A stretch of DNA of 62,867 nucleotides, counting the filler, from Bipalium vagum (taxonomy: Eukaryota): the NCBI GenBank assembly GCA_037834085.1. It is 3 parts of 3 records of this genome, joined end to end, with 100 filler letters (N's around TTAATTAATTAA, not from the genome) between each part and the next. Parts side by side here need not be neighbours in the genome. Positions count along the whole stretch, not along the records: positions 16,951 to 40,588 come from JBBMKC010207152.1; 2 more parts are not named here. One strand, written 5' to 3'. Under the pieces are notes generated by a model. The model saw only the letters and a list, made by a program, of their open reading frames with translations, was not told the origin of the DNA and searched no databases. Positions 3,372 to 60,808 of this stretch are shown here, in pieces (positions within the stretch are counted from its first letter, which is position 1; each line of letters starts with the position of its first letter). Position numbers and translations under genes: made by a program.

Positions 3372-6057
3372 TTAACTTTTGTAAAAGATGCCATCATTAC
3401 GACTGTTGAAGTTTTGACTTGGGCACTTATCGTACCAATCTCCAGTTGGAACGATTTGCATCAGACTTGAGATATCTTGTAAACTGTTCATTGAATTGAT
3501 ACCCACTTCCCTTTCCTTTTTTGTGAAGTCAAATTGATAGGTGGTCTGGGTATCTAATGGTTTACTTTCTATGGAAATGTTACATTTGATCGGTTCCTTA
3601 ATAGGTTCTTTACAATATTCATATTTAATGAATGTATCATTATAAATCGTGTTCTTTGCAAAGGGTATTTCCGGTTTTCTGTATGATGGATAAGGCAAAT
3701 ATAATTTAGAAGGAGGCTTCCAATTAAAGTTTTCTTGATAATCGGTTGGTGCTCCTTCATTATTGATCACATCTTCCTTTAATGTTGAAGCAGTGTTTAA
3801 AGTAAATATCTTGTTCCATTCTTGAAAATCTTTTTTATAAACACTTGATCCACTTTCTCCGTCGTTTACCTTCCGGTCGTAATTGAATTTTAAAGTGGAC
3901 ACCGGCGGATTTACTGGAGTCGTTTTTTCTATAAATGAACAAAAGTTATAAAACTCTTCCATTGATAATAAATAATATTCATGAAAGTCATTAAGAATTA
4001 ACAGAGAGATGTAGTAAATAGGCATTGTTAAGAATTTTGGCAACCATACTATGGAGTACAGATAAATAACGAGGGTGTCATTAATAAAAAGTATGATAAT
4101 TTCAAAGATGCTTGAAAAATAATTTATTGTAAAGAATTTTAATTTAATAATTTACCCACAACTTCCTCCCATCTTCTAGCCAACTCTTATTTTGAGACAA
4201 ATCATTTAAAGACCTAATTTGGGCATCTTCTTACGTTTAGAAATGCTGCTCCTCCATTCCACGTTCCATTGACTCGAACAGATGAAATGTGGGGATTACG
4301 CCAAGTGACTGTGTACTGCATAGATCATATCTTTTAACATGTTTAAAGTGATTTTAAGTGGGTGGTGGTGCGTAGTCATGGAGTAAAATTACTTTGCATA
4401 AGATTTATCTAATTCTGGATCTTTTGCAATTAAAACAATGTTCAATTTAACAGTAAAATGTTTAAGGTACACCAGACTTTTTCACTCTTTATAGATTCAG
4501 AGCATTGTTTTATTTTCAAAATTTCATGGTATTGGAGTCTGTTTAGACTGTTGATCTGGGTTAACCAATGATTTTTGTATGAAGACTTTCTTTTGTATTG
4601 CTTTAACAAAACCTCACTTAACATCCTCGGTTTTCCAGTTGTCTTTTGTCATATGGTTGATAAGACATCAATTTCATTCCCTTAAAAACTTTCCCATAGC
4701 TTTTAATCAACTCTGGCAGACAATTTCTTCCTTAATGATGTCAGAAAACCAATTACCGTAAATGTGGAATTAAATATGTTTTTCTGCAATTAGAAGATCT
4801 TTAGAAAGACGGTTTTACTTGTCACATATCTGGTCAAACAATCCAATTATTAAATCAAAGTTTAGTGAGCGTTTTATTTCGAAAAATGGGCCAATCTATT
4901 GGCCAACTTGTTCGTGAGATTTGAAATCTCTTGACTTTTTTCTTTGGGGACATGTTAAATCATTGATCTACAGCAACAAGTCAGACATTCGTGAAGGTAT
5001 CAAAACCAAGAACAAGACATTACTGGACATCAATCTGATTTGTGTGAAAGAGTAATGGAAAATTGGATTCAACGAATGAACATCTACAAACATGCTTTAG
5101 GAGGACATATGAGGGATGTTGAGTTCCAAAATTAATGGTTACTCTGTGTACTTCAGTTTGAAATAAAAATTTTATATATCAAATAGAAGTCATTTTATTC
5201 GAAAATCAAAATGCATCTTACTTAATGGAACACACTATATTAACATCTTATGAAGATTCAAATAATTACTCTAATAAATATTGATTATTAAAACAAAATG
5301 GATTAAATTTGAATTCAAAATTGTATAACTGTCAGTGAATCGATTTAAATAAACTCACATTAATCATTTGTACATTTAGCAAAACATAAATGAATTAAAA
5401 ATACATTTGAATATTTCTTATACAAGTTCACATCTCTTATAGGTTGATGTTAGTGTAAAAAAGCGAAATTTTAATAAAAGAAGTCTGAAGAAGAAAATAA
5501 GCTTACAGTTCAAAAATCCACTGAGGACTTTGACGAACTGAGATGTAAGAAATTAAAAAATAATAATTTTAGAAAATCGTGAAATGCTGTGAAAATAATG
5601 AAAAAATGTCATAATAGTTTATCAATATTTTTTTTGTTTTCATTTACCAAGTTTTATAAAAATTTTATATCAACATAAAAGTAAAAAAAGCTCATAAAAA
5701 ATTTAAAAATTAAAATTTTTTACCTGGATTTTTTTGTTTAAATTCATAGCCATAATTAGACTGTGATTCCATGGGCAGTTTTGAAAGCTGAATCTGATCA
5801 AGACGACGGACAAATTTTTGTGAGAGATTTCTTTTATTATGCAAGTAATTGTCTCTGTATTCGGTGTAGTGCTCGAAAGGAGTGTTCGGTTTGACATAGG
5901 TTGATTTTGGGTTGAAAGATGGAAAGCTAGATAACGTATGGGGAACATAGTTGGATTTTTGTTCCGTTGATGAAGAATATTCGGTACAGTTTTCAATGCG
6001 CCATACTGGGAAAGCTTTTAATGACCTGTCTATTCGAGACTGTCTTATATTTGTCAT
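3372..6057 (-). CDS. SAXO-like (stabilizer of axonemal microtubules, Mn-repeat) protein, ~296 aa; exons 6057-5724 and 3928-3372
   Basis: Repeated Mn-like motifs (STEQKSNYVPH, TEYRDNY, SNYGYEF, SVYKKDFQEW, TDYQENF, TTYQFDF). Phase-1 intron CCAG|gtaaaa ... tttatag|AA joins the two ORF-track ORFs in frame. Start codon uncertain. Confidence 0.7.
4068..4765 (-). mobile_element. Decayed mariner in the SAXO-like intron
   Basis: KVILLHDYAPP (HDNARPH motif) and FHLFESMERGMEEQHF; TIR-like cgagggtgtcattaataaaaag near 4070. Confidence 0.6.
4780..5240 (+). mobile_element. DD37D/maT-type transposase 3' fragment
   Basis: RFISKNGPIYWPTCS*DLKSLDFFLWGHVKSLIY and ..GGHMRDVEF; TIR-like end near 5239. Confidence 0.7.
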
Positions 6058-7844: not shown

Positions 7845-10251
7845 ATCGATTAAATCGTTTTGACATAGAATAATTTTTAAAATTGATTACTAAACGAATT
7901 AAAATTAATGAATATTAGAATATAACACGGGTTTCCAATATTGTTTTATAAGAGACTCAATTTTATTAAAATATGACAAATGAAAAAGAGTAAATTTTTT
8001 GACGTACTAGTTTATTTCTAATAAAACCTAAGTGCTCAAAAATAATCAGAATTTTTCTTTTTGTCGGCCATTCCAATACTGATATACCAAATTTCTTCAT
8101 GAATTCCTACATTTTCTTACTTTTGTACACCGAACTAATAACCAATTTTCACCATAATTAATTTTATTGTGAGTTCAGCACTTTCTGACAAAAACTTAAT
8201 GTATTCATCAGAATTCATTTTTCCTTTCAGGACCTTGAAAGACAACAAACCGTTTAGCATTCCAATCCCTTTAATACAATGACTTGGCTATGATTTGTTT
8301 ACAAAGAATTTGTAATCAATGTCAAGAAATCTCTTCTATTCAGAAAAATTTGAGAGATCCCAAATATGATTTATTGAGATCGATGATATTGTGCCTTTCA
8401 AATGTAAATGCTTCTGGACAACTATCAAATAAATTTGGGCTGACATTCTTTTGCATATAAAATCTGTTTTTCTTAAATATCTCTGTACGGTACTTCTTCA
8501 TGCAACTAAATCAAATTCTTTTTATTAACTTTCTTGCATTTAATTTTTCTTTTTTTTCATTAGGAACAAAAATCTTTCTTTTTACGCAGTACTAACACGG
8601 CTTATGAATTTTTAAAATTGGTAATGTCGTCATCTGAATTCTTTTTGTTCTGTAGACGTATAAGTTTTGACTGCATCACGTATAATATTCAACCTTATTC
8701 CAATGGCTGATTGACTAAGCCCTTCTGCTGTCCATTGAATAGCCATTTTTATTTCAAATATATCGTGTATTATTGAAAAAAAATCTAATATATTTTTTAA
8801 TTAAATTATACTAAAAATTAAAAAATCATGTTATAAATTTTAAATTTGCTGTGACAAAAAATTTGACTTAAATAATTCAAAATTTACTAAATATGACTAC
8901 ATTATATAAAAAAGTATATTTAATTAAAAAATTTTTATATATCAGGTAACGAACTAAGCTTTTTCGTTTATTCAATTGTTTAAATTTGTTAGCACTTGGG
9001 ATTCTCATTTATCAACCGATTTATATTTTCTTTGTTTTAGTTTGCTGCTTAAGCATATGATTTTCAAATTTACTGTATAATAATAATAATTATTATATTA
9101 TTACTTATTCTCTGGAATGGGTGCTCCGAAAGTTCGCTGGAAAAATCACAAATTCAAGCAATTATTTATTACGATTGGAAAAATAACACAACCACAAATG
9201 AAATTGTCTCAAAACTTAACGAGGTGCTTGGTGAAGGAACAATGCAACTGTGAACAATGCAAAATTGGTTCAAAAATGCAATAGTTGCGATTTTTCATTG
9301 GAAGGCTAAAAGTTGGAGAATTGTCAAATTAAGGAGTTAAATATAAGCGATACAGCCATAAGAAACCGACTGAAAGCATTAGGATTGACTTGTAAACTGG
9401 TCAAATGGGTTCCCTACCAACTAGCTGAAAAAAAAGTTGGATAGCATTGAAATTTGTTAAGACTTCTCGAAAGAAACCGAAATGATCCTTTTCTCGACCG
9501 GATAGTCACTTGCGATGAAAAGTGTATCTATCATGACAACATAACCAGATGAAGATCGTGATCGTTAAAAGGAGAACCTCCGCAAAAATTGAAAAACACA
9601 ACCTTACACGAAACAAGATTCTTTTATGCATTTGGTGGGATTCTCGAGGAATTATTTATCAGGAGTTTCTCAAATCCGGGGAGACCATTAATTCTGATGT
9701 CTATTGTGAAATGCTAAAAAGAGTTCATGCCATTATGAAAGAAAACCGGAGCAGTTTGATAAACCGAAAACAAGTGATTTTCCACCAAGATAATGACAAG
9801 TCTCGCAAATCAATAAAGACGTCGTAGGTTATTCAGGAATTTAACTGGATTCTAATAGAACATCAGCTATCGCCTCACTAGATTTTTATTTGTTCCGGGT
9901 ATTACAGAATGACTTGATGGGTAAAAAGTTTAAGAGTTCCGAAGGTATAAAAAATGAAGTACTTTTTTCTTTCATTCAAAAGATAGAGAATTCTTTAATA
10001 CTTGGATCAATAAACTTCTAAATAGATGGAGGCAGTAATAGAAAAAGATGTGGAATATCTGGATGATTAATTATTTAATAAAGTTTTATGATTAATAAAC
10101 TAAATTAACTTCAGTCTTAGTTTAGTATTTAATTAAAAAAACGAAAACTTAGTTCGTTAACTGATTCATACAAAATAAATCATAAAAGTATTTTGATTAA
10201 GCATCATTAATAAAAGTTTTATGTGTGTCAAAAATTTGGACCCTCGCTATA
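7845..10251 (-). mobile_element. Decayed Tc1 element interrupted by a mariner insertion
   Basis: HTH (AEGLSQSAIGIRLNI) near 8700 and VLEWP near 8070; 7870-8245 is homologous in inverted orientation to 53680-54245; candidate TIR at 10223-10251 resembles 54285-54313. Confidence 0.6.
8941..10165 (+). mobile_element. Near full-length mariner (DD34D) with TIRs; pseudogenised transposase
   Basis: TIRs atcaggtaacgaactaagctttttcgttt / aaacgaaaacttagttcgttaactgat; motifs KWVPYQL, IVTCDEKC, LCIWWDSRG, FHQDND; ~1.2 kb. Confidence 0.9.
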
Positions 10252-11899: not shown

Positions 11900-12570
11900 G
11901 GTCAACCAAACATTTATTGATAAAATTTCCGTCAGTAGGATGTGTGACTACCATTCTTTTCAACAAATTCAGTCGTTCGGTGTGGCATATTGTCGAACAA
12001 AGACTTGACTGTTTCAAAAAGAATCGAAAAGAATCCACTGCTCTTTCAGTCGTTGTTTTAAAGATTCCACGAAGACAAGTGGTTCGGTATACTCAGTTTG
12101 CAATCTCATGCCAAGTACATCCAACAAATGTTCTATAATGAAGAGATACAAACATAGCGTAAACCATGGAATAGTTTTGATATTATATTTGGTTTAAAGC
12201 CGCTATAACAACTCTAGAAATTATAGGGCGTGCCTTCTGATGCTGGAACCAGAAGTTGTGCTGTTTCATGAAAGGTACAACGTTTTTCTCAATGATTTCT
12301 TTCGCATACTTGTCACCATTTAAAGTCCCTTCAATCATTATCAGAGGGCTTAATTGTTGAGAAGTCATGAGCGTCCGCAAAATTGGTAATAATGTAACGT
12401 TCCAAAAAACGTTCTATAATTTGCTGTCTGACTCGAAATGTTCCATCCTTTATATCAAAGCAGAACCGTGATTCGTCGATAAAACCATCTTCTGCCAACT
12501 TTCATTAGATCAATGAAGTTTTTCTTTGCACCAAATTAAGGAATTAGAACAATTTAGTAAAGGCATTTCT
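11900..12570 (-). mobile_element. Tc1 (DD34E) transposase 3' remnant
   Basis: WQKMV (decayed WxxVxFSDES region), IEGTLNGDKY, FQHQKARP (QDNARPH), IEHLLDVLG (IEHLWD). Confidence 0.75.
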
Positions 12571-12574
12571 AGAT

Positions 12575-15500
12575 ATGACAAAACTGGCCTGCCCGGGTTA
12601 GCACATGGTCAAAACCTTCTCGTGGTGGAGTTGTTAACCTGAATATGGACCAATTTGACTGTGGTTAGGGTTGGGGGATACGCTGGTTGATAGCCGCGTA
12701 AAAGGCCGACCCAGGACTAGGGTGGTTGCAGGGGGCGCATCGACCCTGTAATCACCTGAAACACGTTCTCGGTTTCGTGCAATTTATGAAAAGTTCACTA
12801 CTATTAATTTAGCAAGCATTCATGGGCGTTCAAGACAAAGACAAGTCTGAAGCGTCGCACGGAGTTGAGGTTCGGTGTACAATCTGCCCGAAGGTCTGCA
12901 AAGGTCTGAGGGGTTTGGGGGTGCAATGGCATCACAGAAAGCAAGGAGAAATTCCGATTAAGACAACTTCAGAATTACCGTTGAAATCGAATCCTCCGAA
13001 CTCCGAGCTGTTTGTTGGTGATGCAGCCACCTTATCAGTGGTCGTGTCATCTCCGCCGGAAATGAAGGATGAAGTTATGAAGAGGAAAACGGCACGAAAG
13101 ACGAAATAGCGGTCTTTATTCAGGCCGAAGCGCGTCTTAAAGTGCAAGGCGTTCAGGTTATCACTTCGGAGATGCTTGGACGGATTTATGGCATCACGTT
13201 TTACCGAAAGGGGACTGATTACCAAGTTGCTTTGGAGATGGCGATTTTTGATTTACGGACCAAGGAAAAAAGGAAGACAAACCTCGCTTGCGAGGCCGGC
13301 GATGATCTTGATATTTTACCTGGAAGTCGAGTTATTAGACAGCAAGTGGACGACAGATGCGGGATTCTTAAAATTCTTACGATCGATGAAGAAGTCGACT
13401 AATGAAGATAAGTGGGGCGAGAAGCTACTTGACTAGGCGATCGAAGATCCCGGTAGGTTGAGTGAGCTGGTGGAACAACAGGCCGCAGTGTTAGTAGCGT
13501 CATATAGTAAGGCGGGTAAGCAGAGAACGAGATGGGAATGCTAACCATTTGAGGAACAACCAGTGGAACCTAAGAGGGTACGGAGAAAACGGTATCGACT
13601 TTGGCTGTTCCGGAATATCCAATCTCTATATCAGATCGACAGAGCGAAGGCCGCACGGCTGGTATGCGATGACCAAATCTCTACGGGGGTTCAACTGGGG
13701 AACGAGCAGAAGGGGTTCTTACCTCTGGACGGTTGCCTTGAGAATATCTCAAAACTGAAAGTTATTATGGAGGGGGCAAAGACCGACTCTGGTAGAGTCT
13801 TTTTGGCGTTTCTAGATATGAAGAACGCGTTTGGATCCGTAAATCATGAGTCGCTCATCTGGGCGGCGAGGGAAAGAGGAATCCCGGAAAGGGTGATTAA
13901 GTATGTCACCTGTAATTACAGTGGTGCGACAACGGTAGTTAACGGGTTCACCGTAGCGATTAACCGAGGGGTGAAACAGGGAGACCCATTGTTACCAGTC
14001 ATGTTTAACAACGTCATGGAATCTGCAATTAGTAAGGTTAGAGCGCATGCTAGGACCTTTGCTGGGGGAGAAGGTAACTCCAATCCTGGCCTATGTGGAC
14101 GATATAGTTGTTTTTGGAACGACCGAACGTGAGCTGATGGGCATTCTGAATACTTTGGTCGATGAACTTCGGCTCAGTGGACTTCAGTTGAACCCGAAGA
14201 AATGCGCAACAATGGGATTCCAAGCGGTTGGCCATACTTGGAAGATGCTGCTTTTAGCGATAAAGGTAGGTGATCTGTTGCTTAACATGTCCAGTAAAAC
14301 GGACACATATAAGTATTTGGGTATTCGATTCTCGGCGAAGGATCCAGTCAAAGAGGATTTTAGTCGATTGATCTTGAGGGGTTTAGGTGGGCTGTCAAAA
14401 GCTCCACTGAAGCCTCAACAGAGAATGTGTATCCTCCGCGACTACCTGATCCCTAAGGTCCAAAATGTTGAGGGGTTGGGATCGGTAACCTCAACCGAGT
14501 TGAGAACGCTCGATAAGTATATGCAGCGGAAAGTTCGTGAATGGCTGAAATTATCAAGTGATATGACATCAGCGTATATTCATGCTAGAGTGGCGGATGG
14601 TGGTATTGATGTGCCGTCACTCTTGGCTACAGTTTACTTTGGAAAGGCGCGGCGGCTGGCGAAGATGGGTGAGAGCACTGACCCGACTGTGCGTGCGGCA
14701 GGTGATTGTCTGAAGCTTGGTAAGGAGGTCGCATTGTGGAACGAACCGTTGGTGGTGGGCTCTGACGAAGCGAGATCGATGAACGACTACTGTCTCGTTT
14801 CTGCGTCTATGTTGTATTGGTCGTTGGACGGAAAAGGATTAGCGGAGATGGATTGAGTCCCAGGGGTGCATTCGTGGTTCAACGATGGCACCAAACTTAT
14901 GAGTGGGAAATATTATATTTACGCGATCAGGATTTGGGATAACCTGATTCATACTGCGACAAGAGCATTAAGGGGTAGAGCTGGCTCTAGGAGCCCATTC
15001 TGTGATAAAGGCTGTGGTGACAAGCTCGAGAGCCTCAATCATTTACTCCAGGAATTGTAGTGCTGCAAAAGGCCTGCGTCCCTATAATCCCCTATAGCAG
15101 CAGTTTTCTAAAGCCGGATATCGTAGCCTTTAAGGACGGTAATCCTCCTCTGGTTTTAGATGCCCAGATTGTCAGCGACTCAAGTTTGGTAAACTTAGAG
15201 GAAGCTAATAAGATCAAGGGCGGTAAATATGATATAAGCGTGGTACATCCTTATGTAGACCCCGGATTGTAGCAGGTATAACACTCAATTGGAGGGGGCT
15301 TGGTGTTACAGCACATGGTTATTACTCAAGGAACTCGGGTTCACGCTAGGGGACCTAAAGGTAATGACTGTGAGGTCTTTGGAGGGCTCTGCTGCAATGA
15401 TTCGATTCAGGCATGTCGACGTATATTGGGCTGAATGTGTGGCCGTATGGACGCCCTAAGCAATAGCCATCCTTATGGCTCGATTCTCTGTTTCGGTGGA

Positions 15501-15891
15501 GGGTGTCGGATTTCTGTTTCAGCAGGGGTCGACTCTCTGTCGAGCAGGGAGGGAAAAGTGTACGGGTGTCCGGCGGTCGGGCTAGGGAGGAACCTGAGGT
15601 CATTTATGACCTGGGAAAGGGGACCTGGTCAAGATGAATACCCCCGAGGCAGGTAAGTTAGGTAAGTTTTATGTTATTTTCTTTTATTTATTCCGTTTCT
15701 TTTTCTGTTAGGAATGTCTGTTGGATTAATTTATTGTATGATAGCTTTTTTGATGTTTGGTGATGGGTAGGGTTGGTGTTAGTGTTGTTAAGAAGTTTAT
15801 TTGTACTATTTGTTGAATGTTCTGATCATACGGGGTATGTGGGTTCTAGTCCACGACCGGCGTGTAAACTGGCTAAGGTGTATAAAAAAAA
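12575..15891 (+). mobile_element. R2-clade non-LTR retrotransposon (RLE type), decayed, inserted outside rDNA
   Basis: GC-rich island. C2H2 finger CTICPKVCKGLRGLGVQWHH; RT QKGFLPLDGC, LDMKNAFGSVNH, GVKQGDPL, LAYVDD, YKYLG; KAPLKPQQR; CDKGC..ESLNH; RLE KPDIV..VLDAQIV..K..KY; TLNWRGAW; poly-A at 15884-15891. Frameshifts and an internal deletion before the RT core. Confidence 0.9.
12595..12660 (+). ncRNA. HDV-like (R2-type) self-cleaving ribozyme core
   Basis: P2 ggtcaaa (12607-13) / tttgact (12654-60); P3 acc/ggt around L3 ttctcgt (12617-23); J4/2 aCcaa; located at the R2 5' end. P1 5' strand unclear. Confidence 0.7.
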
Positions 15892-16165
15892 TAGAATTAT
15901 GAAAATTGGTTGAAATGAACGAAAAATTTTGTTATAATTAGCTTTAATTATTTATAGAATCTGTCTATTGTAATGGATAGAAATGCTATCAATTCTTTAC
16001 AAATTAATTTTTTAAAATATATTGTTGGCTTTGGAGGGTAAATAATTCTTTTTTGGTATCATTTATTTTTCTTTGTCAAAAATTTAAATTGTGATCGGTT
16101 TGGAAAATGAATTTGAAGAGTTGCAAAGTATCAGTTCTTGTTTTACTGTTTTAATCTTATATTCA

Positions 16166-20042: not shown

Positions 20043-21249
20043 TAATAGGTGTCAAATAAGTCCTTTTCGATTTTGAATGAAAAATGTCATGAGAAATTTT
20101 GTATTTACAATTAAATAACAAATATTACACAGATACATACTGTAAGGATTAAATTTTAATTAATATTAAATAATAAATCATAAATATTTTTTTAATATTT
20201 TTTAAAGTAATATATAAGTAAAATAAGTTTTTAAATAAATTTAGTAAATTGAAATCGTTTTTAAAAAATTAAATAATTTAATTAATTTTAATAAAATTTT
20301 TAGATAATTAATTTGTTTAAATAAAGGATAAAAAGAGGACACTTATTAAATCTATAAAATTATTTTCTTGAAATAAAAATGTTAAGAGAGATTGCACAAA
20401 TGCTTCAGCAGATGATGATGGCTGGAGGAATTGGAGCTCGAAGTTACCAGATATTGAATATATGATAAATGCAACAAGACAAAAGACATTGGGAATGTCA
20501 CCAGCAGAGATGATATTCGGAAGGAGAATACACAGAGAACAATGGTTTGAGACTGAAAGAGTTGACGATGATCTCAGGGGAAATAAGCTTACAAAACGAC
20601 AGTTCCAAATATGAGATGAAGTTCTGGTAAAGCTTAACGGAAGATCAAAAAATAATGAAAGATATGTAGGCCCGTGCGAGATTATTGAAAAACTCCATGA
20701 CAGAAGATACCGCCTGAAAAATCCAAGTGGCAGAGAAAAAACAGGAACATAGAAAAACTTAAAAGATTCTTTAACGAGGGGGGGGGTGTAAGGATTAAAT
20801 TTTACTTATTATTAAATAATAAATCATACTTATTTTTAAAATAAGTTTTAAAGTAATATATTAAAATTTAATTCTTAATGTAAAATAAGTTTTTTAATAA
20901 TTTTAATAAATTGAAATCGTTTTTAAAAAATTAAATAATTTTAATAAAATTTTTAGATAATTAATTTGTTTAAATAAAGGATAAAAAGAGGACACTTATT
21001 AAATCTATACAATTATTTTCTTGAAATAAAATTTTAAAAAAATCTTGAGTTTTTGAATTCTGAAACTGTCGATAACGTGGCAGTAACTAACACATACAAA
21101 TTGCAGTTCCATTTATTCTTCAAAAATGTCACCTTGATGCAGACAAGATGCAGATTTTAAATCCAAACACAAAATAAACTCAATAAAATAATTTTCTGTT
21201 AATATTACATATTGAATAAAATCCGAAAGGACTTATTTAATACCATGTA
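20043..21249. mobile_element. Mariner-type MITE hosting an LTR element
   Basis: TIRs ggtgtcaaataagtccttttcgatttt (20048-20074) / aaaatccgaaaggacttatttaatacc (21218-21244); ~250 bp after removing the insert. Confidence 0.75.
20141..21092 (+). mobile_element. Miniature (internally deleted) gypsy LTR element, 952 bp
   Basis: TG..CA ends; TSD CATAC (20136-40, 21093-97); 3' LTR 20787-21092 after a poly-G PPT; truncated 5' LTR 20141-~20380; integrase C-terminus YMINAT..GMSPAEMIFGR..YVGPCEI. Confidence 0.9.
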
Positions 21250-32639: not shown

Positions 32640-35600
32640 GGAATCAAGTAAATCTCCACATCAACTTCTCCTTTAATAATGATGGATGACTGAGCTTCTG
32701 GTAGAAATTCTTCGGCTGTTATTTCTTGTTACCGTTTTTCTAGTACTTACACTTTACCAGTAGATCCCAATCTGGTTGACAGTTGTTCGTGTATGAACAT
32801 AGCATCTTGAGTAATGTTCCATTAAAACTTTCTACTAGCCCATCCGTTTGCGGTCTATACGGTGTTGTATTAAGTTTAAGTATAGCGAATAAAACACATA
32901 TCTCTTTTAGTAATTCGCTCATAAGATTTGTTCCTTTATCCGTTAACAATTTCCTGGGAGCTCCATACCTATAAATAATTTCTCCTACAAAAATCTTTGC
33001 TATTGTTGCTGCCTTCTGATTTTTTCATCGCATAGGCTTCCGGCCATTTCGTGAAGTCATCACACATTACTAATATATATCGATTATCCTCTGTTGTTTC
33101 TGGCAATAGTCCTACGACATACATTGCTACCATCTCCATGGGTGCCAATAGTGCTCTGATTGATTTGAGCGGTACTTTTGTTCTTTTGCTCCTGTTCCTT
33201 TCTGTGTCTGACAGATCTTACATGATTGACACCAATTCCTAATGATTTGTTCCATCTTCGGCCAAAAATATTTTCTTGAAATTCTTGATAACGTTTTTCT
33301 TGCTGATAGATGTCCACCTAGTGCCCCGTCATGATATTGCATCATTATTGGATCCCTATCCTTACTAGGTACTACATAGCATAACTCTTTGTCTCTGATA
33401 AAATATAAAATGCCCTCTTTAATTTTAAATTTGTCTTTTAATTTCTCCCAACTCTCTTGCCAATCTTTCGGAACTTTTCCCGTCATACATTCCTTAATCA
33501 ATACTTAATCTTCATCTTCTTTTTAATTCTCTTCCCTAGATTGCCATATTTGGATAACGCAATATCGGTTCTCTAATTAATTGTTCTTTTAACTGTTCGA
33601 ATGCCTTTTGTTGTTAGTCTCCCCACATGAATTTGTTCACATGTTTTTCTATTATATTGACTACCTTTTCTCGCTTCACTTTTCGTTTAAGAGCCCTTGC
33701 TTTCCCTTTTAATAAATCGTTCAACGGTGCGGCTATTTTCGCGTTATTCTTAACAAATCTCCTACAATATCCAGCTAATCCAAGGAATTATCTGAATTCC
33801 TTTGTATTCTTTGGTATCGCAAAATTTGCTACTTTTTTCTTATTCTCTGGGTACGGTCGAATTCCTGATTCTGATACTATATGGCTTTTCCTTCGCTTTT
33901 TGCCCCTTCATACTTGGTTGGTTTTACTTTTAATCTCGCTACATTTAGTCTTTGCAAGACTGACGCTATGTCCTTTATGTGTTCATCTCCATTCAAAGAA
34001 AAGATTATCATATAATCTAAGTAAACCATTGCATGTTATACATCCATTAATATCAAGTTCATCAATTGCTGAAATGTTGCTGGAGCGCCTGTTGATCCGA
34101 AGGGCTTCTTATTGTATTGATATAGTCCTTTACTTGTTACGAAAGCAGTGATTTCTTTACTGTCTTCATCCATTGCCACCTGATTATATCCTTTTTGTAA
34201 ATCCATTACGGTAAATATTTTTGACCTTTTGATTTTATCAAACATCATTTCTATCACTGGTATAGGATACGTGTCTTTTCTAGTTACTTCATTAACCTTC
34301 CTATAATCAATACACACTCTGATTGACCCGTCCTTTTTCTTTACCATTACTACAGGTGATGTCCATGGTGAGGAACTTGGCTCGATAGTTCCCATCTTCA
34401 ACATGTCATTAATTTGCTGGTTTATTTCCTCTTCTAATCCGTATGGTTGTCTATAGGTACTGAATAGTATTTAATTGGTACTGAATCTGTCAAAATAATT
34501 TTGTGTTGGAGTATATGCGTAATCATCCTTCGCGAATACATGGTCAAATTTCCAAATTTCTCGCTGTCGTTCTGTCAAATTTGGGCTCGTTATATTGTTA
34601 GTTTATATTTCTTAATCATACTTGGTCGTAATACATTGATGAAATCTGCGTAAGGTTCATTTGTAAAAAGGCTGTAATTGTCCAATCTTCATTTTTGTGT
34701 ATAATTGTTTTTCTTTTACGTCAAAATTGACTACTCTTACTGGGATTTTTCCGTCCTTGATTTCCAGTACCTCATCTACTGCTCCATGTAACCATCGTAA
34801 TTCGATTCTTGGTTTGAAATACGCATACCACCTTTCCTTGAAACTGAAAATTTGGCCTCTTGGTCCTGGCTGCATATTGTGATTTACGTAATCTGTTAAA
34901 ATCTTATCACTAATAATTAATATCGTAGCTCCTGAATCTAATAACGCTGATATCATTCTTCCATTAATTTTGACTTTTATTACACTTTATGATATCTTCT
35001 CTTCATTTCTCCCCGGTAATTACTTTACTCATGCTTATCCGAGGCTTATATACTGGAATTCCTAACCTAGCTACTTTTTCCTCATCAAGTTCACGGTCTT
35101 GTGGTTTTTCTTCCAGTTTTTCATCTGCATTCTGCTCCTTTTCTGGTATTTCGTCTTATATGAATGGATCCAATGTCGGATAAATTGTTGGACGCAGCCC
35201 GATTAATGATATATAACGAACCGGCACCTTCGGTAATTTCCTATTAATCTTGAGATATTCACCGCTGACTGGCGCTGTTGGTATTCTCCGCTTTTTCTTC
35301 TTTATTTTTGGTCTTCGGGCTTGATGTGAGAAAAATCTAGATTCCCTTCATTACTACTAGTCGAACTTTCACATGTTTTTACCACCACTTCCAATTCGCC
35401 TTCCGGTTCCTCTGATTTTCTTTTGTGAAAAATGTTTTAAGCTTTGTTAGCTCCTTTCCATGGTGATGGGTAATAACAAACTTTGCTAGGAATGGTAAAC
35501 AAGCCGTAATCAATCTCCATGTGAATCATATAGTTCTATGTAATGTATATACCGACATTATTTGAGATAATCCCCATTTAATCAACATGAATATCGTATA

Positions 35601-38600
35601 AATTTCGATTATATCTGCCATGAAATTCTCAAATCCTGTAAACTTTCTCCATGTTTTTTCCAACAGTTTCATTATTGCTTTCTTGTAATGGTCTGGACTG
35701 AGTAAAATCTCATAATTTCTTTTATCTGCTTATCTTCCGTTCCCTTGCATCACCGCATCCACTAGATGTGTTAACACTCTTTCCCTTCTTTCTGGAAACA
35801 TAATATTCCTTCTAGCTTCTTCAATATCAGAGTCGTATATATTCCTCCTGAAGCCAATTCGTCGGAATCCTCATATTTTAGTTCACTCTCGATTTTTAAC
35901 AATTCTAAATTCTCAACCTTACTTGTTTCTTTTCGATGGGGAAGGGTGATCCATATATCCTGAGTTATTTTGTATATGGGTGACATTGCTGTTCCACATT
36001 CCAATATTTTTGGTTTTGTTTCTTTTTCTAACTAGCTTCGTGTGACTGGTGACACAAAAAGTTCTTCAGTTTCCCCATCATTGGTAGTTCGTTGGTGTGA
36101 TAACATTTTCCCTGTGATTGCGTTGAACACTTCCTCAAATTCTTGTAGTTGTACCATATAATCCGAATATGTAACTACCCAGGACACTTTCTCGACTTTT
36201 CTGTATTTTTCTCTACCACTGCAGGTACCGTCGTCTCCTATACTTCCCTCTACCGTTATGGTTTGTCGTGTTCTTACTCCTATTTTTCTCATCAATTGCC
36301 AGTCCTGCCGCAATTTGTAACTTTCCTGTTACAAAAGTTGATTCACAATTTTCCGAGTTTACAATTACTGGGACTGGTATGAGAATTGCTTCCAAAAATG
36401 CGGATCCACTGTGATCACCACAGTAGTACTTAAAAATCGCCTTCTTCACAATACATTCTTTAACAGTAGCCCTTCTGAATTTAGTCTCTTGATAGAGTTG
36501 TATTCCAATTTTCTACTCGTTAAATTTGTTGGATATGCCTATGAGGATTCTTCGAGGTCTACAAGCGAATAAATTTTCCCCATTTTTGGTTTTGTGCAGT
36601 CGTATGCTACCAATGCATTCGTTCTATTTATCATAATTAGGAAAATCATAATCATTATTAGCATCATTGGTAGTAGTGAATCATTTGTCGATCGTCTATC
36701 TCCCCTGGGTTGACTATTATCTCTTCTCGGATCTTCCTGTTACTCCTCCCGCTTTGTTCTTTGTCTAATTTTTGATTCCCTTCTTGGAGGTTCAAGTGAT
36801 TTTTCTGTGGTTGATCCAGCCTCTGGTTCTGATATTTGCTTTGCTCCAAATAAACTTCGCCATCTTTGGTTTAACTGCAATCTTCAATCATTTTATTAGC
36901 TCCTCGAATAAATGTTTCTGTATTTCGTCTCCCTGACTCCCGATTCATGTTGTCCGCTCTTTTTAAAATTAACGCAATTGACTTTTCTTTATCCAATCTT
37001 CCTTCACATAATTGCGCTAGCCATACGTCATCCATAAAATCTTCAATATGTGATAAAATTTTCGAAATTTCCAAAAATATTTCTATAGTTAAATTATTAG
37101 CCTTCATTGATGGATCCATTAATTCAATCAATCTTCGTAATCGCTCTTGATCTTCCTTTTGTGGCCTCATCATATACTTCTTCCTCATGTTGTTTCCTGT
37201 ATCGGTCGGGTAATCTCTGTCAATATTCCCTTCGTACAATTCTTTTAGTTTCTCTGCTAATTCCATAAGGATGTGGTTCATTTGGGTCCTTCCTTGGTCT
37301 CCCAACTGGATTACTTCCGGGTCTTGTTTCTCGTGGTCTTAGTTGTTCCTCCGGTCTTGAAATTTCTTCCCTTTAAGCTTCTTCTCGGGTTTGCTCTACT
37401 GGTGATATTTCTATTGGTCTTTGTAGTTCTTCTTCCTCGGATATTTCTTCTAAAACCACTGAATCAGGATCTGTAACTTCGGATCGTGCTGTTTCTGTGG
37501 CCATTTCCGGTGGTTTCAAATTTCTTTGGCCAGCTTGGTTGATTAATTCTTCATAACTGTTTCCGGCTAGTACTGTCCGTCCATTGCTATCTACCTGAAG
37601 TGCAACGATTACTGTTTCTTCATCTGCATTGCATCCACAGTCCAAAAAGTATTCGTCGTCTAGCTGATATTTATTCCAGAAAATTACAATGATCCATTCC
37701 CTACCCATTAGTTAAGTTGCTTTTTCTCTTCCTGCACGAACCCTTGCACAATAATGAAGTTCTATGGTCGCTTCTTCCCATCTAACCATTTTCAATTTGA
37801 TTTTTATTGGTGGCTGATCGATTCATATTAACCTCATATATCTTCCGTATCTACCGATCACGGATCTGATATCTGCCTACTGAACACCAAATTCTCTTAT
37901 ATGTAGTTTTATTACTTTAACTATTTTTTCACGAATCATTGGAGTGACCTCCAGATCCGATACCTGACTTTACAAATCCATAATTCTTTCTTTGTTTCTT
38001 GGCGTTCTTGCGAATTACTGTTTTAGTACCTCTGGAAGTTAACATCTGTTTTCTCTTCTAGCGAATCGTTTCTGGTTAATATCTTAATTTCATTTTCCTG
38101 TGATTTGATTATTGATATCGTTTTGTGTCTGATTACCCTGGTCAATGTATTCATTCTTCGTTTTCCGCCCTCAATTTCTCCGTTTCATCATCGTCTTCAA
38201 TATTCCTTACCATGTTTATTTTCGCATTACCGAATGCCAACCTTTTAACCACCTTTGGTGACGTCTTTTCACTAAGACAAAATTTTACCATATTCTCATA
38301 CTGCTTGCTTTTAAAGCATTGTACTTTCCCATCGATGTTTACATTATCTCTTTGAGGGGAATTCTTCGCATAACACTTAACTTCCAAATGACCTCTTTTG
38401 TTGCAATACCTACAAATTTTTATTTTACACTCTTTTGCAAAATAACCTATTTCATTACAGTTTCCACAAATAATATCTGTATTCCGTCTCTTATCCTTAC
38501 CTGGACCAAATTCTGATTTCCTAGCTTTATATTGCTTCGCTAAATGCCCTGGCTTCTAACAATTAAAACATTTCTTTACCATTGGTCTCATTTCGCTTCG

Positions 38601-38995
38601 ACTCCATGTTTCTAGTGCTACTGCTGTCTCCTCTAACTGCTCCTATTTCACAAATCATCGTTGGGTTTCCTTTAATATTCATTTTCGCTTTTCTTGCCTT
38701 TTGCAGTAACTTTTCGAAATCCTTATAATCTGCCAATCCTAACGCTGTTCTTAATGATTGTAACATTCCAATGAAAAACTGATATTCCAATATCTTTTTA
38801 ATTGTTTCTGTCCACTGGTTTTTGGGTCCAAATGCTCTCTGTGCTAATAATTCTACTTGATTCATATATTCGCCTACTAACTCTTCTGTTCCTTGCTTCC
38901 TCTTGTAGAACATCTGCCTATTTACCCTACCTATATCTCCTGAAATTAGCTTCTTCGTCAATTCCTTAACTACTTCTGCCCAACTTGTTTTATTG
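32640..38995 (-). mobile_element. Decayed, rearranged Ty3/gypsy retrotransposon with env-like gene
   Basis: gag (RKQGTEELVGEY; CFNC*KPGHLAK near 38560), extra ORFs 37708-36670, env 36667-~35300, protease ALLDSGAT (34956), RT SPWTSPVVMVKKKDGSIRVCIDYR..PFG, integrase HHCC (YHDGALGGH..CQSCKICQ) and core LTDKGTN..TTPYRPQTDGLVE. Confidence 0.9.
35300..36667 (-). pseudogene. Chuvirus-like glycoprotein (env), frameshifted and internally deleted
   Basis: Signal peptide MMLIMIMIFLIMINRTNA, LVAYDC..YSLVDL, QLYQ..C..YYCGDHS, GDDGTCSG, FVSPVTR..C..P.Y, LASGGIYT, and hydrophobic C-terminal WRKFTGF..IFMLIKW..LH. Confidence 0.7.
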
Positions 38996-53400: not shown

Positions 53401-53639
53401 TTCTTCAACAAAAAAATAATAATTTTTCCCTTCTCAATAATAAAAAGAAAATTTTCTTCGGAGAAATTCCTTTTCGGAATCATAGCCTTATATAGTCTTA
53501 AAGATTAATCTACGACAGCGATCTACGTTTGAAAGGCTATTTACTCTAATAGGCCATTAATATCGAGATAATATAATAATAAATGACCAATAATAAAAAT
53601 AATTATATCCCGCCGTCGGGATATAATCGTTTTTAAGGG

Positions 53640-54313
53640 GCAGTGCACTGGTAAGGATTATGACAATGTCAAACGATCTGCTGTCTTTCAAGGTCCTGAA
53701 AGGAAACATGATTTCTGATGAATACATTAAGCTTCTGTTAAAAAGTGCTTAAATTATAAAAAAAATACAATTAAATTATATAGCAAATTTTTGGTTCTAG
53801 TAGAATAATTTTTAGGTGTAAAAAAGTAAGAAAGTGTAGGAATTCATGAAGAAATCAGGTATATCAGTATCTGAATATTGTTGAGGACTGTTGGAAAACA
53901 ATATCAGATCTGGTCTATGAGTGAAACCAGTTCAATGATAAGGATGGTTTAGTTGAAAAATTTTTTGCTGTCATAAATCGTCTTAAGGTCAACAAGCAAT
54001 ACAAAGTTATTGATTTATACAAGTCAATTAGACGTCACTTATGTACAGTATTAGAAAACCATGGTGATCTGTATAATCATTAGATTTTTCCTATAAATAA
54101 ATAGATGTGTCAAAAGATTTAATCTTTTTCATTGACTATTTTCATGATTTTAAAAAGATTGAGTTTAGTGTAAAACAATGTTGGAAACCCGCTTTTATAT
54201 TCTAAGATTTATTACCTTTAACTCGTTTAGTAACCAATTTTAATAATTATTCGAACTTAAGTTTCTTAGATTTATATATCACAGGTGTGTCAGAAAACTT
54301 AACCATCAGCATA
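53640..54313 (+). mobile_element. Tc1 3' remnant, same family as 7845-10251
   Basis: Shared segments such as gtaggaattcatgaagaaat and ttggaaaccc; TIR-like end 54285-54313. Confidence 0.75.
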
Positions 54314-55789: not shown

Positions 55790-56979
55790 TCAATTTTTTT
55801 TATTGATCAAAAACGGGAAATTTTTGGTAATATTATCACTCAATTTTTTCGTAATAGCTTCCTCATCGCTATCCGATCCGGTTGAGCGAACGGTCGCCAA
55901 TGGTTTCCGGTACCGTTTTTTGGGATTGAGAAACGTCTCGTATAGATCACGTTTTCGTTTTCGGTACTCTTTGATTTTCGTGATAATTTCTATCTGTTTC
56001 TCCTTGTCAATGGTTCTGCATGATTGTACCTGTACCACGGGAACCAAACTCAGTTATAACACGAGTTTGACCAAATGCAAAAAACATGTACCTGAGCATC
56101 CGTAAGAGGAACCATGGTGAACGGGTTCTCTTTGGCACTGCCAACAGGCTTTGTACTCCAGAAATGCGTCAGTGTTTCCTGATTTGTGTATTTGCCGCAT
56201 GGAAGTTTGACGGGATTGGTTAATGGTTGAAAAGTCAATGGGTCCAGACAATCGTCGGGATAAGTGTCACAGTGATGTTGATCCTCTGAAAATGGTACAA
56301 AATAGCGTCAAGTACGATTGATCTCTCACCGATTTCATCTTGTTCCACGGTCATCGGGTTGGGCTCTGTCTTGTGCTCCACTAACGCCATTAGTTTCCGT
56401 TTTTTCGGAATATATAATCGCAAGCAACTGAGGCACGGAAGCGATGTGTCCTTCATCGATATTATTTCCAGCAGAACAAGATGAACGCTGGTACGACGGA
56501 TGATATTGTAAATACACTGATCGGCATCGCTCCTATCGTATTGGGAGACGATATTTATTTCCACGACCTGGGATTGTGGTGATTTTGATAAATCAATTAA
56601 CAAATCTGGCTGAAAATGAAATACATATATTGATTTTATAAAGCCAATACAAAAATACTTTATTTAATTTAAACTGATTAATTATAGTTTTAAAGTTTTC
56701 ATTATTTACAATGTCTGAAAAGAGATTTCTACAAACCAACCTGACTGACATTTTCTTAATCATATGTCTATTATAAGACGGTTGGAAAGTTATTTTATTC
56801 ACTTTATATGTAAAAGGCCAAGTGACTAAAATATAAACCGGTGGTGTCACAAAAGATTGGGCTAGAAACCCACTTTCTGAGGTTTCACTTTTCATTAATA
56901 ACTGAGAAATATCTTTATTTTCAGAAGATGGGTGACTGCAAAATATTTGAGTACCAAATTCTGATTTACAAATATTCAT
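55790..56979 (-). CDS. UBOX5: UBOX5/RNF37-like U-box protein; exons 56979-56659, 56609-56330, 56285-56092, 56029-55790
   Basis: N-terminus MNIC..GFLAQSFVTPPVYILVTWPF; U-box YPDDCLDPLTFQPLTNPVKLPCGK..NPFT; short GT-AG introns with matching phases (last acceptor less sure). Confidence 0.8.
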
Positions 56980-58640
56980 TAATTTAAAAATTTAGCCCTA
57001 AATTATTTAAAAATTTGACCTATTCAATTATTTATTTAAACAAAAATATAAATACAGAATGATTATTTAGTTTCATTAAACAAATTAAGTTCGTTTTATT
57101 TAATGGACAATAAACCATAAAAATATTTGCATTTTTAACATTTACTTTATTTCTTGTTATTTATTTGAAAACTTTATCTTTATAAATATTTTCATTTATT
57201 ATACATTTTATTTAATATTAAAGTAAACTTTACTAATTAAAATATGTTTATAACTATATTCGTTGACAATTAGATATAGATTTAGAGTTTCAATATATAT
57301 AAATGCTATCCAAAGATCCAACAAATATTATCACTGTCTTTATAATTCTGTTGAATGGGCATAAGGTGAAAGAAAATTTCCGCCTAAATGAACATGCACA
57401 TAATAACCGGGAATACATTTAAAAACAAAAACCAAAAATTATGATGACTAAAATTAAAAGCTAACCTGATTCTACGTAATGTTGATAATATAATTAGAAA
57501 ACAATTGTCATAAAGATTATAATTAACAATGAAGCACCATAAACGTGTGGAAAATCATTTAATTCAGGAATCACGGTTAAAAGTTTTGATTGAAAGAATG
57601 AAATAAGTGCTAAATTTATTAGTATAAAAAGATTTATTAACTTCAACTTATATAACACGTCAAAATATTCTAAGTAGTTTCTATTAATATTTTTTGATTT
57701 TTAGTTATCTCATCACCAATTGTGAAAAAACAAAAAACAAAAGATGTCACGGAAACATTATTTGATAAAAATTTTCAGTTTATTATTATTTTATCAATAA
57801 CTTCTAAATGAGTATTATTCTTTAAAATGATTAAATTTTAGTAAAATATGAAAATTATTTCTTATTTAAATCTACGTTATTTTACTTTTTTTATTGAATG
57901 TCGATTTTTTCTTTAATAATAAAATTATTTTTTTAAATTAAATTCGTTAAGAAAAAATAACTAAATATATTTTGAACAAAATATCCCGATTTAATAGAAC
58001 AATTATTTTGAATTTAACAAAATCATTGATTTTTTAAGTTGAGTCGGCTAACTTAGGTTTCATTATACTAATACAGTTAATCGTAAAATAGTACCCATGA
58101 TTTTTTTCTTATTTTCCTAGTTTTAAATAACCTTTCTTCACCATATTTATTATTTAAATTATTAATGTTATCCACATACTGATTAACCACCTGTATACTT
58201 ACATTGATTTTTCTTTTCATAACAATTTTCCTAAATATCAGAAAATTACTGCAATTCAATTGTGGCGAGATTAAATTTAAAATCAAATTTCAACTTTGAA
58301 TTGAATTAACCATAACGTTATAATTGATAAATTTTTTTGAAAACAAAAAACTGGTTATAGAATAATTATTTAAGTTCAGTAGATAAAAATCACATTCAAT
58401 AGCATATTAAAATCGATATCTAAAATTTTAAAAATCAATAAACATTTTCATTAAATCTCTTACGGGAATCAAATAATTTTTATTGAAAGTAGATAAAAAC
58501 AAAAATAGCACAGACCAAATCGTTTACTCCTTCATTTCTCTTCGTATACTTAAAAAATTACAATAAAAAAGGAAAACAAAATCCGCTTTTATTTTTATTA
58601 TAACTATTAACATTTTCTGAAACATCCGTTTCCAACGAAT

Positions 58641-60808
58641 TCAGTGCTTGTCTTCTTTTTTTTCTGAATCGCCTCCTGCACCACTCGTTCCTCCTTCGGT
58701 TCCCGATGACCCACTGGATGAATCGGAAGATGATGAACTTGATCTTCCGCTGGATTCTCTTTCAGAAGCCATCTAAAAATTATTGAAATTAATACAATTT
58801 AATAATTATTTATATTATTGATTTAATTTAAATGATTTTCTTAATATTATAATATTAAATCAATCAATAAAATACTTTTTTGTATGCCATTTCGAAAAGC
58901 TTCAACGACGACTGCTGCAACTCATTAGTAGCAGCCTTGATCGATTCCGCGGTCTCGTTTTCCTTGTTTGACAACCGTTCTCGGACTTTACCAATCAAAT
59001 CCCTCAATTTTTCACACTCTTCACCAGGCAACTGGCTCTTGAATTCGTCCATTTTTGATTCTGTGTCGTGCACAATTCCTTCGGCCTGGTTGATAGCCTC
59101 GACCAAGTCCTTTTTCTTGCGATCGGCCTCGGCGTTCTCCTCCGCTCGACGAATCATATTCTCAATCTCATCTTTGCTCAGGCCACCGCTGCTCTGAATC
59201 ACAATCTGCTGTTCTTTCCCGGTTCCTTTGTCACGCGCCGATACATTGACAATACCATTGGCATCAATGTCGAACGTCACCTCAATTTGCGGAATGCCGC
59301 GTGGTGCCGGTGGAATGCCAACTAATGAGAACTGACCCAACAATTTGTTGTCGATCGCCATTTCCCGCTCGCCCTGATGGACCTTGATCTCGACCTGGGT
59401 CTGACCGTCAGCCGCTGTCGAGAAAACCTGGGACTTTTTCGTAGGGATTGTCGTGTTGCGGTTTATGAGTTTCGTGAACACTCCCCCCAACGTTTCAATA
59501 CCCAACGACAGAGGCGTAACGTCGAGCAACAGAACATCGGTGACGTCGCCGGCTAAAACTCCACCCTGAATAGCTGCTCCCATGGCAACGGCTTCGTCAG
59601 GATTGACGCTCTTACTCGGAACGCGACCGAACAGTTTCTGCACCGTTTCCTGGACCTTGGGCATCCTGGTCATGCCACCAACTAGAATGACCTCCTTGAT
59701 GTCGGACACTTTGACCTCAGCGTCCTTGATGGCTTTCTCGCAAGGACCGATGGTCCGCTTGATCAAGTGCTCTACCATCTGCTCAAGTTTCGATCGAGAC
59801 AGCTTCACATGCAAATGTTTGGGCCCAGCGTTGTCCATGGTCAAGTAGGGCAGGTTTATATCGGTCTGGACGGCGGAGGACAATTCAATCTTGGCCTTTT
59901 CGGACGCTTCGCGAACGCGTTGAAGAGCCATTTGATCCTTGGCGATATCCACACCCTGATCGCGCTTGAACTCATTGACGATGTGCTGCAACAGAACGTT
60001 ATCGAAGTCCTCGCCGCCCAGGAAAGTGTCACCACTGGTGGATTTGACCTCGAACACGCCCTTTTGAATTTCAAGGATCGATACATCGAACGTGCCACCT
60101 CCGAGATCAAAGACACCGATTATTTTGTCCTCGGCCTTGTCCAAGCCATAGGCCAGAGCAGCAGCCGTTGGTTCGTTAATGACGCGCAGTACGTTTAACC
60201 CAGCAATCTGACCAGCGTCTTTCGTTGCTTGGCGTTGGGAATCATTAAAATAGGCTGGAACAGTGATGACTGCATTCTTGACGGAGGTTCCCAGAAAGCT
60301 TTCAGCTGTTTCTTTCATTTTAATCAATACAAACGCTCCGATTTGGCTGGGAGAATACATTTTCTTTTGTGCTTCGACCCAGGCATCACCGTTGGAAGCT
60401 TTTACGATTTTATATGAGACGTTTTTCATGTCTTTCTGGACTTCTGGTTCATCAAATCGTCGACCGATCAATCTCTTGGTAGCGTGGAGGGTATTTGATG
60501 AATTTATAACGGCTTGGCGTTTAGCAGGTGCTCCAACCAGTCTTTCACCGTCATTTGTGAATGCAACCACAGATGGTGTTGTTCTGGCACCTTCAGAATT
60601 CTCCAATACTTTTGGAGTTTTCCCATCCATAACACAAACACAAGAATTTGTTGTGCCAAGATCAATTCCAATGACATGACCTTTGACTTTGTCACCGTAA
60701 AGTCTGACATTCTTTACAATATAAAAAAGAAACTTGAGAGAAATTTGACAACCAAATGTTTACCTTTAAATAATCAAAAAGTATATTCTGACGAAATAGT
60801 TTGAACAT
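58641..60808 (-). CDS. HSPA9: Mitochondrial HSP70 (mortalin), 670 aa; exons 60808-60764, 60711-58876, 58772-58641
   Basis: [39 protein letters not shown]; short basic presequence [12 protein letters not shown]; no EEVD; phase-0 GT-AG introns. Confidence 0.96.

Follow-up and report, generated by a model that had tools for sequence, protein, structure and literature searches.

A decayed Ty3/gypsy element with a putative chuvirus/gB-type env between gag and pol in the genome assembly of Bipalium vagum

Errantiviruses carry one of two types of env, and the F-like type is one of them (Chary and Hayashi, PMC13524379). According to that paper, the errantiviruses of Nematoda, Bryozoa, and Platyhelminthes have only env of the HSV/gB type (HSV, herpes simplex virus) and are arranged GAG-ENV-POL, although the GAG-ENV-POL elements are not a single clade. 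Nine flatworm elements are tabulated, including six from Schmidtea mediterranea (1-215 copies), two from Prostheceraeus, and one from Macrostomum, and unannotated env-pol matches were also tallied for Dugesia japonica and Girardia tigrina (PMC13524379). An in-frame env between gag and pol of the planarian element Burro had been reported already in a 2019 review (PMC6431247). Here we describe a Ty3/gypsy element of about 6.3 kb, with the gene order gag-X-env-pol, on the minus strand of a 62,867-nucleotide stretch of the Bipalium vagum assembly GCA_037834085.1 (referred to as the window; three parts joined by filler letters); X denotes a region of about 1.5 kb between gag and env. We are highly confident that this is one old, inactive insertion of the flatworm GAG-ENV-POL Ty3/gypsy kind with an HSV/gB-type errantivirus env (Platyhelminthes C1a). 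The initial annotation of this DNA, made without database searches, knew of no description of such an element, and this suggestion of novelty is not supported: flatworm GAG-ENV-POL elements whose env is of the HSV/gB type appear in PMC13524379, and the window copy is a fossil that represents a distinct family within a known kind.

The element lies between approximately positions 39015 and 32750 of the window, with the following features in the order of transcription:

38154..39015, minus strand: gag remnant, made up of an upstream piece presumed to be capsid (39015-38566) and, at 38618-38154, a nucleocapsid piece
36670..38150, minus strand: X, a decayed coding-like stretch recognized by a codon model
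35260..36667, minus strand: env pseudogene, with good support a chuvirus-type/HSV-gB-type class III fusion glycoprotein (PF24664, tblastn, the fold of a relative, and the match to S. mediterranea env)
34700..34983 (downstream end approximate), minus strand: aspartic protease remnant (RVP E 8.8e-5 over 34983-34900)
33545..34470, minus strand: reverse transcriptase and start of RNase H (RVT_1 E 3.7e-27; RT_RNaseH_2 positions 1-27 of 100 only)
32750..33372, minus strand: integrase, frameshifted and with its C-terminus cut off (Integrase_H2C2 E 2.9e-22, rve_3 E 5.4e-4)

The order of the Pfam domains in pol is protease-reverse transcriptase (RT)-RNase H-integrase, with the RNase H being partial. 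The RT piece was nearest to the Ty3 RT (E 2.5e-32; 115 bits, with the next chain scoring 75 and the RT of human immunodeficiency virus about 50) in a comparison by similarity scores, not by a tree, with the solved chains in the PDB, among which no BEL/Pao RT is known. Peptidase_A17 and DUF1759-type domains, which we take to be characteristic of BEL/Pao-type pol, had no match among the element pieces scanned by Pfam. The earlier assignment of the element to gypsy is supported by both the pol domains and the nearest RT. The nucleocapsid piece of gag contains three CCHC-like knuckles (zf-CCHC E 1.4e-6); the piece upstream (39015-38566) had no meaningful Pfam match and is presumed to be capsid from its position and from a general similarity to capsid sequences. 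The 5' end of gag is probably missing.

The env pseudogene was thought initially to be embedded among gag and pol pieces; the linkage holds, and its position can be given more exactly as between gag upstream and protease-RT-integrase downstream, all on the same strand. By hydropathy, a strongly hydrophobic leader starts at the ATG at 36667, and the C-terminal region has two further hydrophobic stretches that are consistent with a membrane anchor. The minus strand carries, in the expected order, all of the motifs on which the glycoprotein had been recognized (AYDC..SLVD, QLYQ..C..YYCGDHS, GTCSG, SPVTR..C..PIY, and LASGGIYT), spread over four frame segments that are split by three frameshifts and interrupted by in-frame stops. 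Each of the four segments matched PF24664, the Monjiviricetes fusion glycoprotein (E 6.2e-4, 3.6e-8, 3.1e-9, and 3.3e-14), and three of them passed the curated cut-off of that family. With the third segment split, the pieces are collinear on the 653-position profile (5-46, 56-129, 134-191, 407-494, and 487-611), the piece at 134-191 being weak by itself (E 0.088). Near 36100-36070, about 13 env residues stand for 215 profile positions, and roughly 200 codons of the ectodomain are therefore missing.

Frameshifts, stops, and deletions occur in every gene of this copy, which is a dead, inactive fossil. In addition to the loss of codons in env, where frame tracing gave three frameshifts and four stops on the best path through 36667-35400, pol is broken and truncated, having lost the end of the integrase and apparently the greater part of RNase H. 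The suggestion that the element is potentially infectious accordingly fails for the window copy; for the lineage it is a hypothesis, as the available text of PMC13524379 states even for intact elements with an HSV/gB-type env. The same damage bears on a further possibility, namely, that the host domesticated this env to serve as a fusogen or as a restriction factor. Domestication of env genes is known in other animals, and nothing in the window supports it here. The decay of env, with its three frameshifts, four stops, and large internal deletion, equals that of pol, and domestication of the window env, to which we assign a negligible probability, is effectively refuted by these breaks unless they are assembly errors.

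The window env is too broken to fold, and for this reason the fold was modelled on a natural relative of 180 amino acids, P0005, one of three short proteins that an exhaustive search returned for an env piece of 87 residues. The window env matches P0005 by tblastn (47% identity over 72 residues and 42% over 53, E 5.8e-24). In a Foldseek search, the P0005 model had 21 viral matches at E <=0.001, with identities of 11-20%, and glycoproteins of chu-like viruses and xinmoviruses ranked at the top (best E 2.3e-8, chu-like). The initial annotation had anticipated a fold match to chuvirus G or a class III fusogen, and such a match was obtained for the relative, to chu-like G and more weakly to gB and rhabdovirus G. 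Direct searches with the window env gave no usable match in the ESM Atlas for one env piece and no match to PDB sequences for the C-terminal piece. Taken together, the PF24664 tiling and the P0005 fold support well the assignment of env to the class III fusogens of the chuvirus/gB type, as had been proposed from the motifs.

Several properties are shared across the element. Between 39000 and 32750, base composition along the strand stays uniform (A 0.36-0.46, G 0.15-0.26), compared with G of 0.07-0.18 in the flanks, and defines an end of the element near 32750. The codon model, for which gag and pol were the only training data and significance was judged against 100 shuffles, fitted env with z 7.1 (above 100/100 shuffles) and X with z 5.9 (0/100 shuffles reach this score); the opposite strand of X gave z 0.6 and the two flanks z 0.8 and 0.7, and the flanks and opposite strands overall were unremarkable at z 0.2-0.8. 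The density of breaks is also alike, at 3 to 10 per region of 0.9-1.5 kb. We interpret the locus as one insertion because of this combination of uniform strand composition, a gag/pol codon model that fits env and X, and similar decay density.

Comparison with the planarian elements suggests kinship of their env with that of the window. By-eye, ungapped counts were made against the env domain I-II sequences printed in the supplement of PMC13524379, using Smed_errantivirus_4 and Smed_errantivirus_1 of the six. Two pieces of the window env were identical to Smed_errantivirus_4 at 33/61 and 23/56 positions (about 48% over 117 positions), and the first piece was identical to Smed_errantivirus_1 at 27/61. 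The window env lies inside the spread of the family, because the S. mediterranea env themselves range from 32 to 64% identity in six of their 15 pairs. The four cysteines of the comparable domain I-II stretch match the S. mediterranea positions by eye, and the others of this domain pair belong to the part of env that has been lost. Like Smed_errantivirus_1-6 (Platyhelminthes C1a), the window element combines a Ty3/gypsy pol, an HSV/gB-type env, the GAG-ENV-POL order, and a flatworm host; unlike them (intact, 1 to 215 copies), it is broken and truncated and belongs to a distinct family that is about 50% divergent. Intact open reading frames, usually in multiple copies, are a criterion for HSV/gB-type errantiviruses in PMC13524379, and those of the window copy are broken; the element is a decayed relative of these errantiviruses and not an intact member. 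The initial statement that errantivirus env is baculovirus F-like is correct for one of the two env types and does not apply to the HSV/gB type (PMC13524379).

These identities also bear on the possibility that a jingchuvirus glycoprotein, as a nonretroviral endogenous viral element, was inserted into a gypsy copy that had no env, so that the neighbourhood is accidental. In arthropods, Jingchuvirales glycoproteins are often flanked by gypsy fragments without clear capture (Dezordi et al. 2023, PMC10084718), and the best structure matches of P0005 are glycoproteins of chu-like viruses. The window env is nevertheless 41-54% identical to planarian retroelement env, compared with the 11-20% seen between P0005 and viral glycoproteins, is placed as in the published flatworm elements (PMC13524379), and has the strand, composition, and codon bias of the element, and we consider an accidental insertion extremely improbable.

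A number of observations weigh against the interpretation as a single GAG-ENV-POL insertion of the errantivirus kind. The interpretation is based on gene order, env family, decay, and the flatworm host, and the linkage of gag, env, and pol is known from a single copy that is not intact. No long terminal repeat (LTR) pair was found by self-comparison of the window, and the 3' end of the element has no stretch of 11 or more purines; the copy has lost sequence from both of its ends, and a 5' LTR could be located in or beyond an N run at 40589-40688, which lies 1.6 kb upstream of gag and has a short linker with stops in all frames in its middle. The fold evidence comes from P0005, with a model of low confidence (mean predicted local distance difference test [pLDDT] score of 54). 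The top 6 PDB rows for this model were herpesvirus gB and rhabdovirus G (Z 4.8-5.5, root mean square deviation [rmsd] 2.8-6.0, 69-151 residues), and they serve as corroboration of the assignment, Z scores in this range being common, with secretins next at Z 4.7. Longer, full-length relatives of env were absent among 477 candidates from the env query and 7997 from the alignment query, which is weak evidence. Finally, the 411-nt linker between env and protease scored z 0.9 in the codon model, a score reached by 20/100 shuffles, so that it is indistinguishable from shuffles and gives no support to a continuous polyprotein. This linker would also fit two nested or recombined elements, with gag-X-env derived from one and pol from the other, and some rearrangement has occurred because RNase H and both ends of the element are missing. 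Self-comparison, however, found no internal repeat or LTR-like duplicate within the element, the composition is uniform across the env-pol junction, and the gene order is that of the type published in PMC13524379; a composite origin is in our judgement very unlikely.

Other described retroelements share parts of this anatomy. Like the planarian gypsy elements Burro and GYPSM1, in which env lies in-frame between gag and protease, the window element has env between these genes, and both have a gag with two or three CCHC knuckles and extra coding sequence between gag and env (PMC6431247). Burro exceeds 30 kb and encodes MATH, BIR, BCL2, ankyrin, and dUTPase domains, whereas the window element is about 6.3 kb, has a gag-to-env distance of 1.5 kb, and had no Pfam match to any of these domains; furthermore, the Burro env is described as gypsy Env-like and as resembling fusion proteins of baculoviruses, paramyxoviruses, and mononegaviruses, in contrast to the chuvirus/gB type proposed here (PMC6431247). 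The Anakin elements of mosquitoes are likewise LTR retroelements with a chuvirus-like glycoprotein but are BEL/Pao elements in an arthropod host (Dezordi et al. 2020, PMC7642597), and the Chuviridae-like glycoprotein that mosquito BEL/Pao elements carry is found next to gypsy pol as well (PMC13524379). Noncanonical endogenous retroviruses of the Metavirus type with env before pol are reported by Sacco et al. 2022 (doi 10.1099/jgv.0.001739), and those are in nematode hosts.

The X region includes a 155-codon open frame (37338-36871) that is predicted to be helical, and an open frame with one stop runs from X into the env leader. X had no Pfam match, and a search of the ESM Atlas returned nothing at >=0.9, with best scores <=0.82. 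A single-sequence model of X (pLDDT 59) resembled helical bundles of a generic kind (best Z 7.4, rmsd 3.4, 88 aligned residues) and had no match to viral structures below E 0.9; a BCL2-like reading of X, prompted by Burro, found no support in the fold search of this pLDDT 59 model.

A single long RNA probably served gag, X, env, and pol alike in the intact ancestor, and their product may have been one polyprotein. The coding-like character of X and the frame, interrupted by one stop, that continues into the leader make a gag-X-env-pol polyprotein plausible, and in that case the env "signal peptide" would have been an internal signal. By analogy with class III fusogen biology, the hydrophobic segment at 36667 would have routed the ectodomain into the lumen of the endoplasmic reticulum (ER), and the C-terminal anchor would have kept Env in the membrane. 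Trimeric class III Env on budding Gag particles may then have mediated fusion with another, neighbouring cell, after which reverse transcription and integration would have left a new heritable copy in a lineage that passes insertions on. An extension of this scheme, which we put forward as speculative and unlikely, is that intact gag-X-env-pol was an ER-threaded single polyprotein in which X formed a new accessory or matrix-like link between Gag and the fusogen, with intact copies moving between cells, e.g., into neoblasts, as an infectious retroelement of the adult stem-cell system.

The window provides one more decayed copy of the gB/chuvirus-type GAG-ENV-POL gypsy elements that have spread through flatworm genomes, and X may be a small addition to their described anatomy if intact copies conserve it. 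Wider questions concern the way in which a class III fusogen can act when it has no partner glycoproteins, the cells that such elements enter in animals whose adult stem cells transmit insertions, and whether the glycoprotein was first in retroelements or in negative-strand RNA viruses.

A host gene in the window agrees with the initial guess of a probable flatworm:

44820-47330 and 48079-49092, plus strand: STAG/SCC3 cohesin subunit gene, split over two long exons and containing low-complexity runs of G, H, and Q

This gene had 10 matches, one unnamed (76%) and nine named (34-46%), and all nine of the named relatives are flatworms, so that a flatworm host is supported by sequence similarity. 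Taken with the low GC content, this would suit a free-living flatworm, for example a planarian.

The remainder of the window contains several further features. A frameshifted non-LTR retrotransposon with RVT_1 matches (13545-14856, plus strand) lies inside a GC-rich block at approximately 12000-16000, and its RT matches R2 proteins best (E 3.6e-30). An Rfam scan of the whole window gave no matches, and so no ribosomal RNA around this element, which could be of the R2-like or NeSL type and reside outside ribosomal DNA, or could be a displaced dead copy; a transfer RNA scan of the whole window likewise returned none. An inverted pair, 8070-8940 and 52342-53876, is 75-83% alike, and its translations contain motifs suggestive of a decayed Tc1/mariner transposase. 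A 259-codon open frame without a Pfam match (3372-4151, minus strand) contains short repeats that to us are reminiscent of microtubule-binding SAXO-type proteins. One long open frame at 58864-60759 (minus strand) encodes Hsp70 (E 1.2e-268), presumably of the mitochondrial type, and an open frame at 56593-56991 (minus strand) matches DUF5918 (E 6.6e-13) and is probably an exon of a host gene that continues at 56235-56663. A local duplication, 20141-20394 and 20787-21047, has copies that are 89-93% identical with a spacing of about 650 nt.

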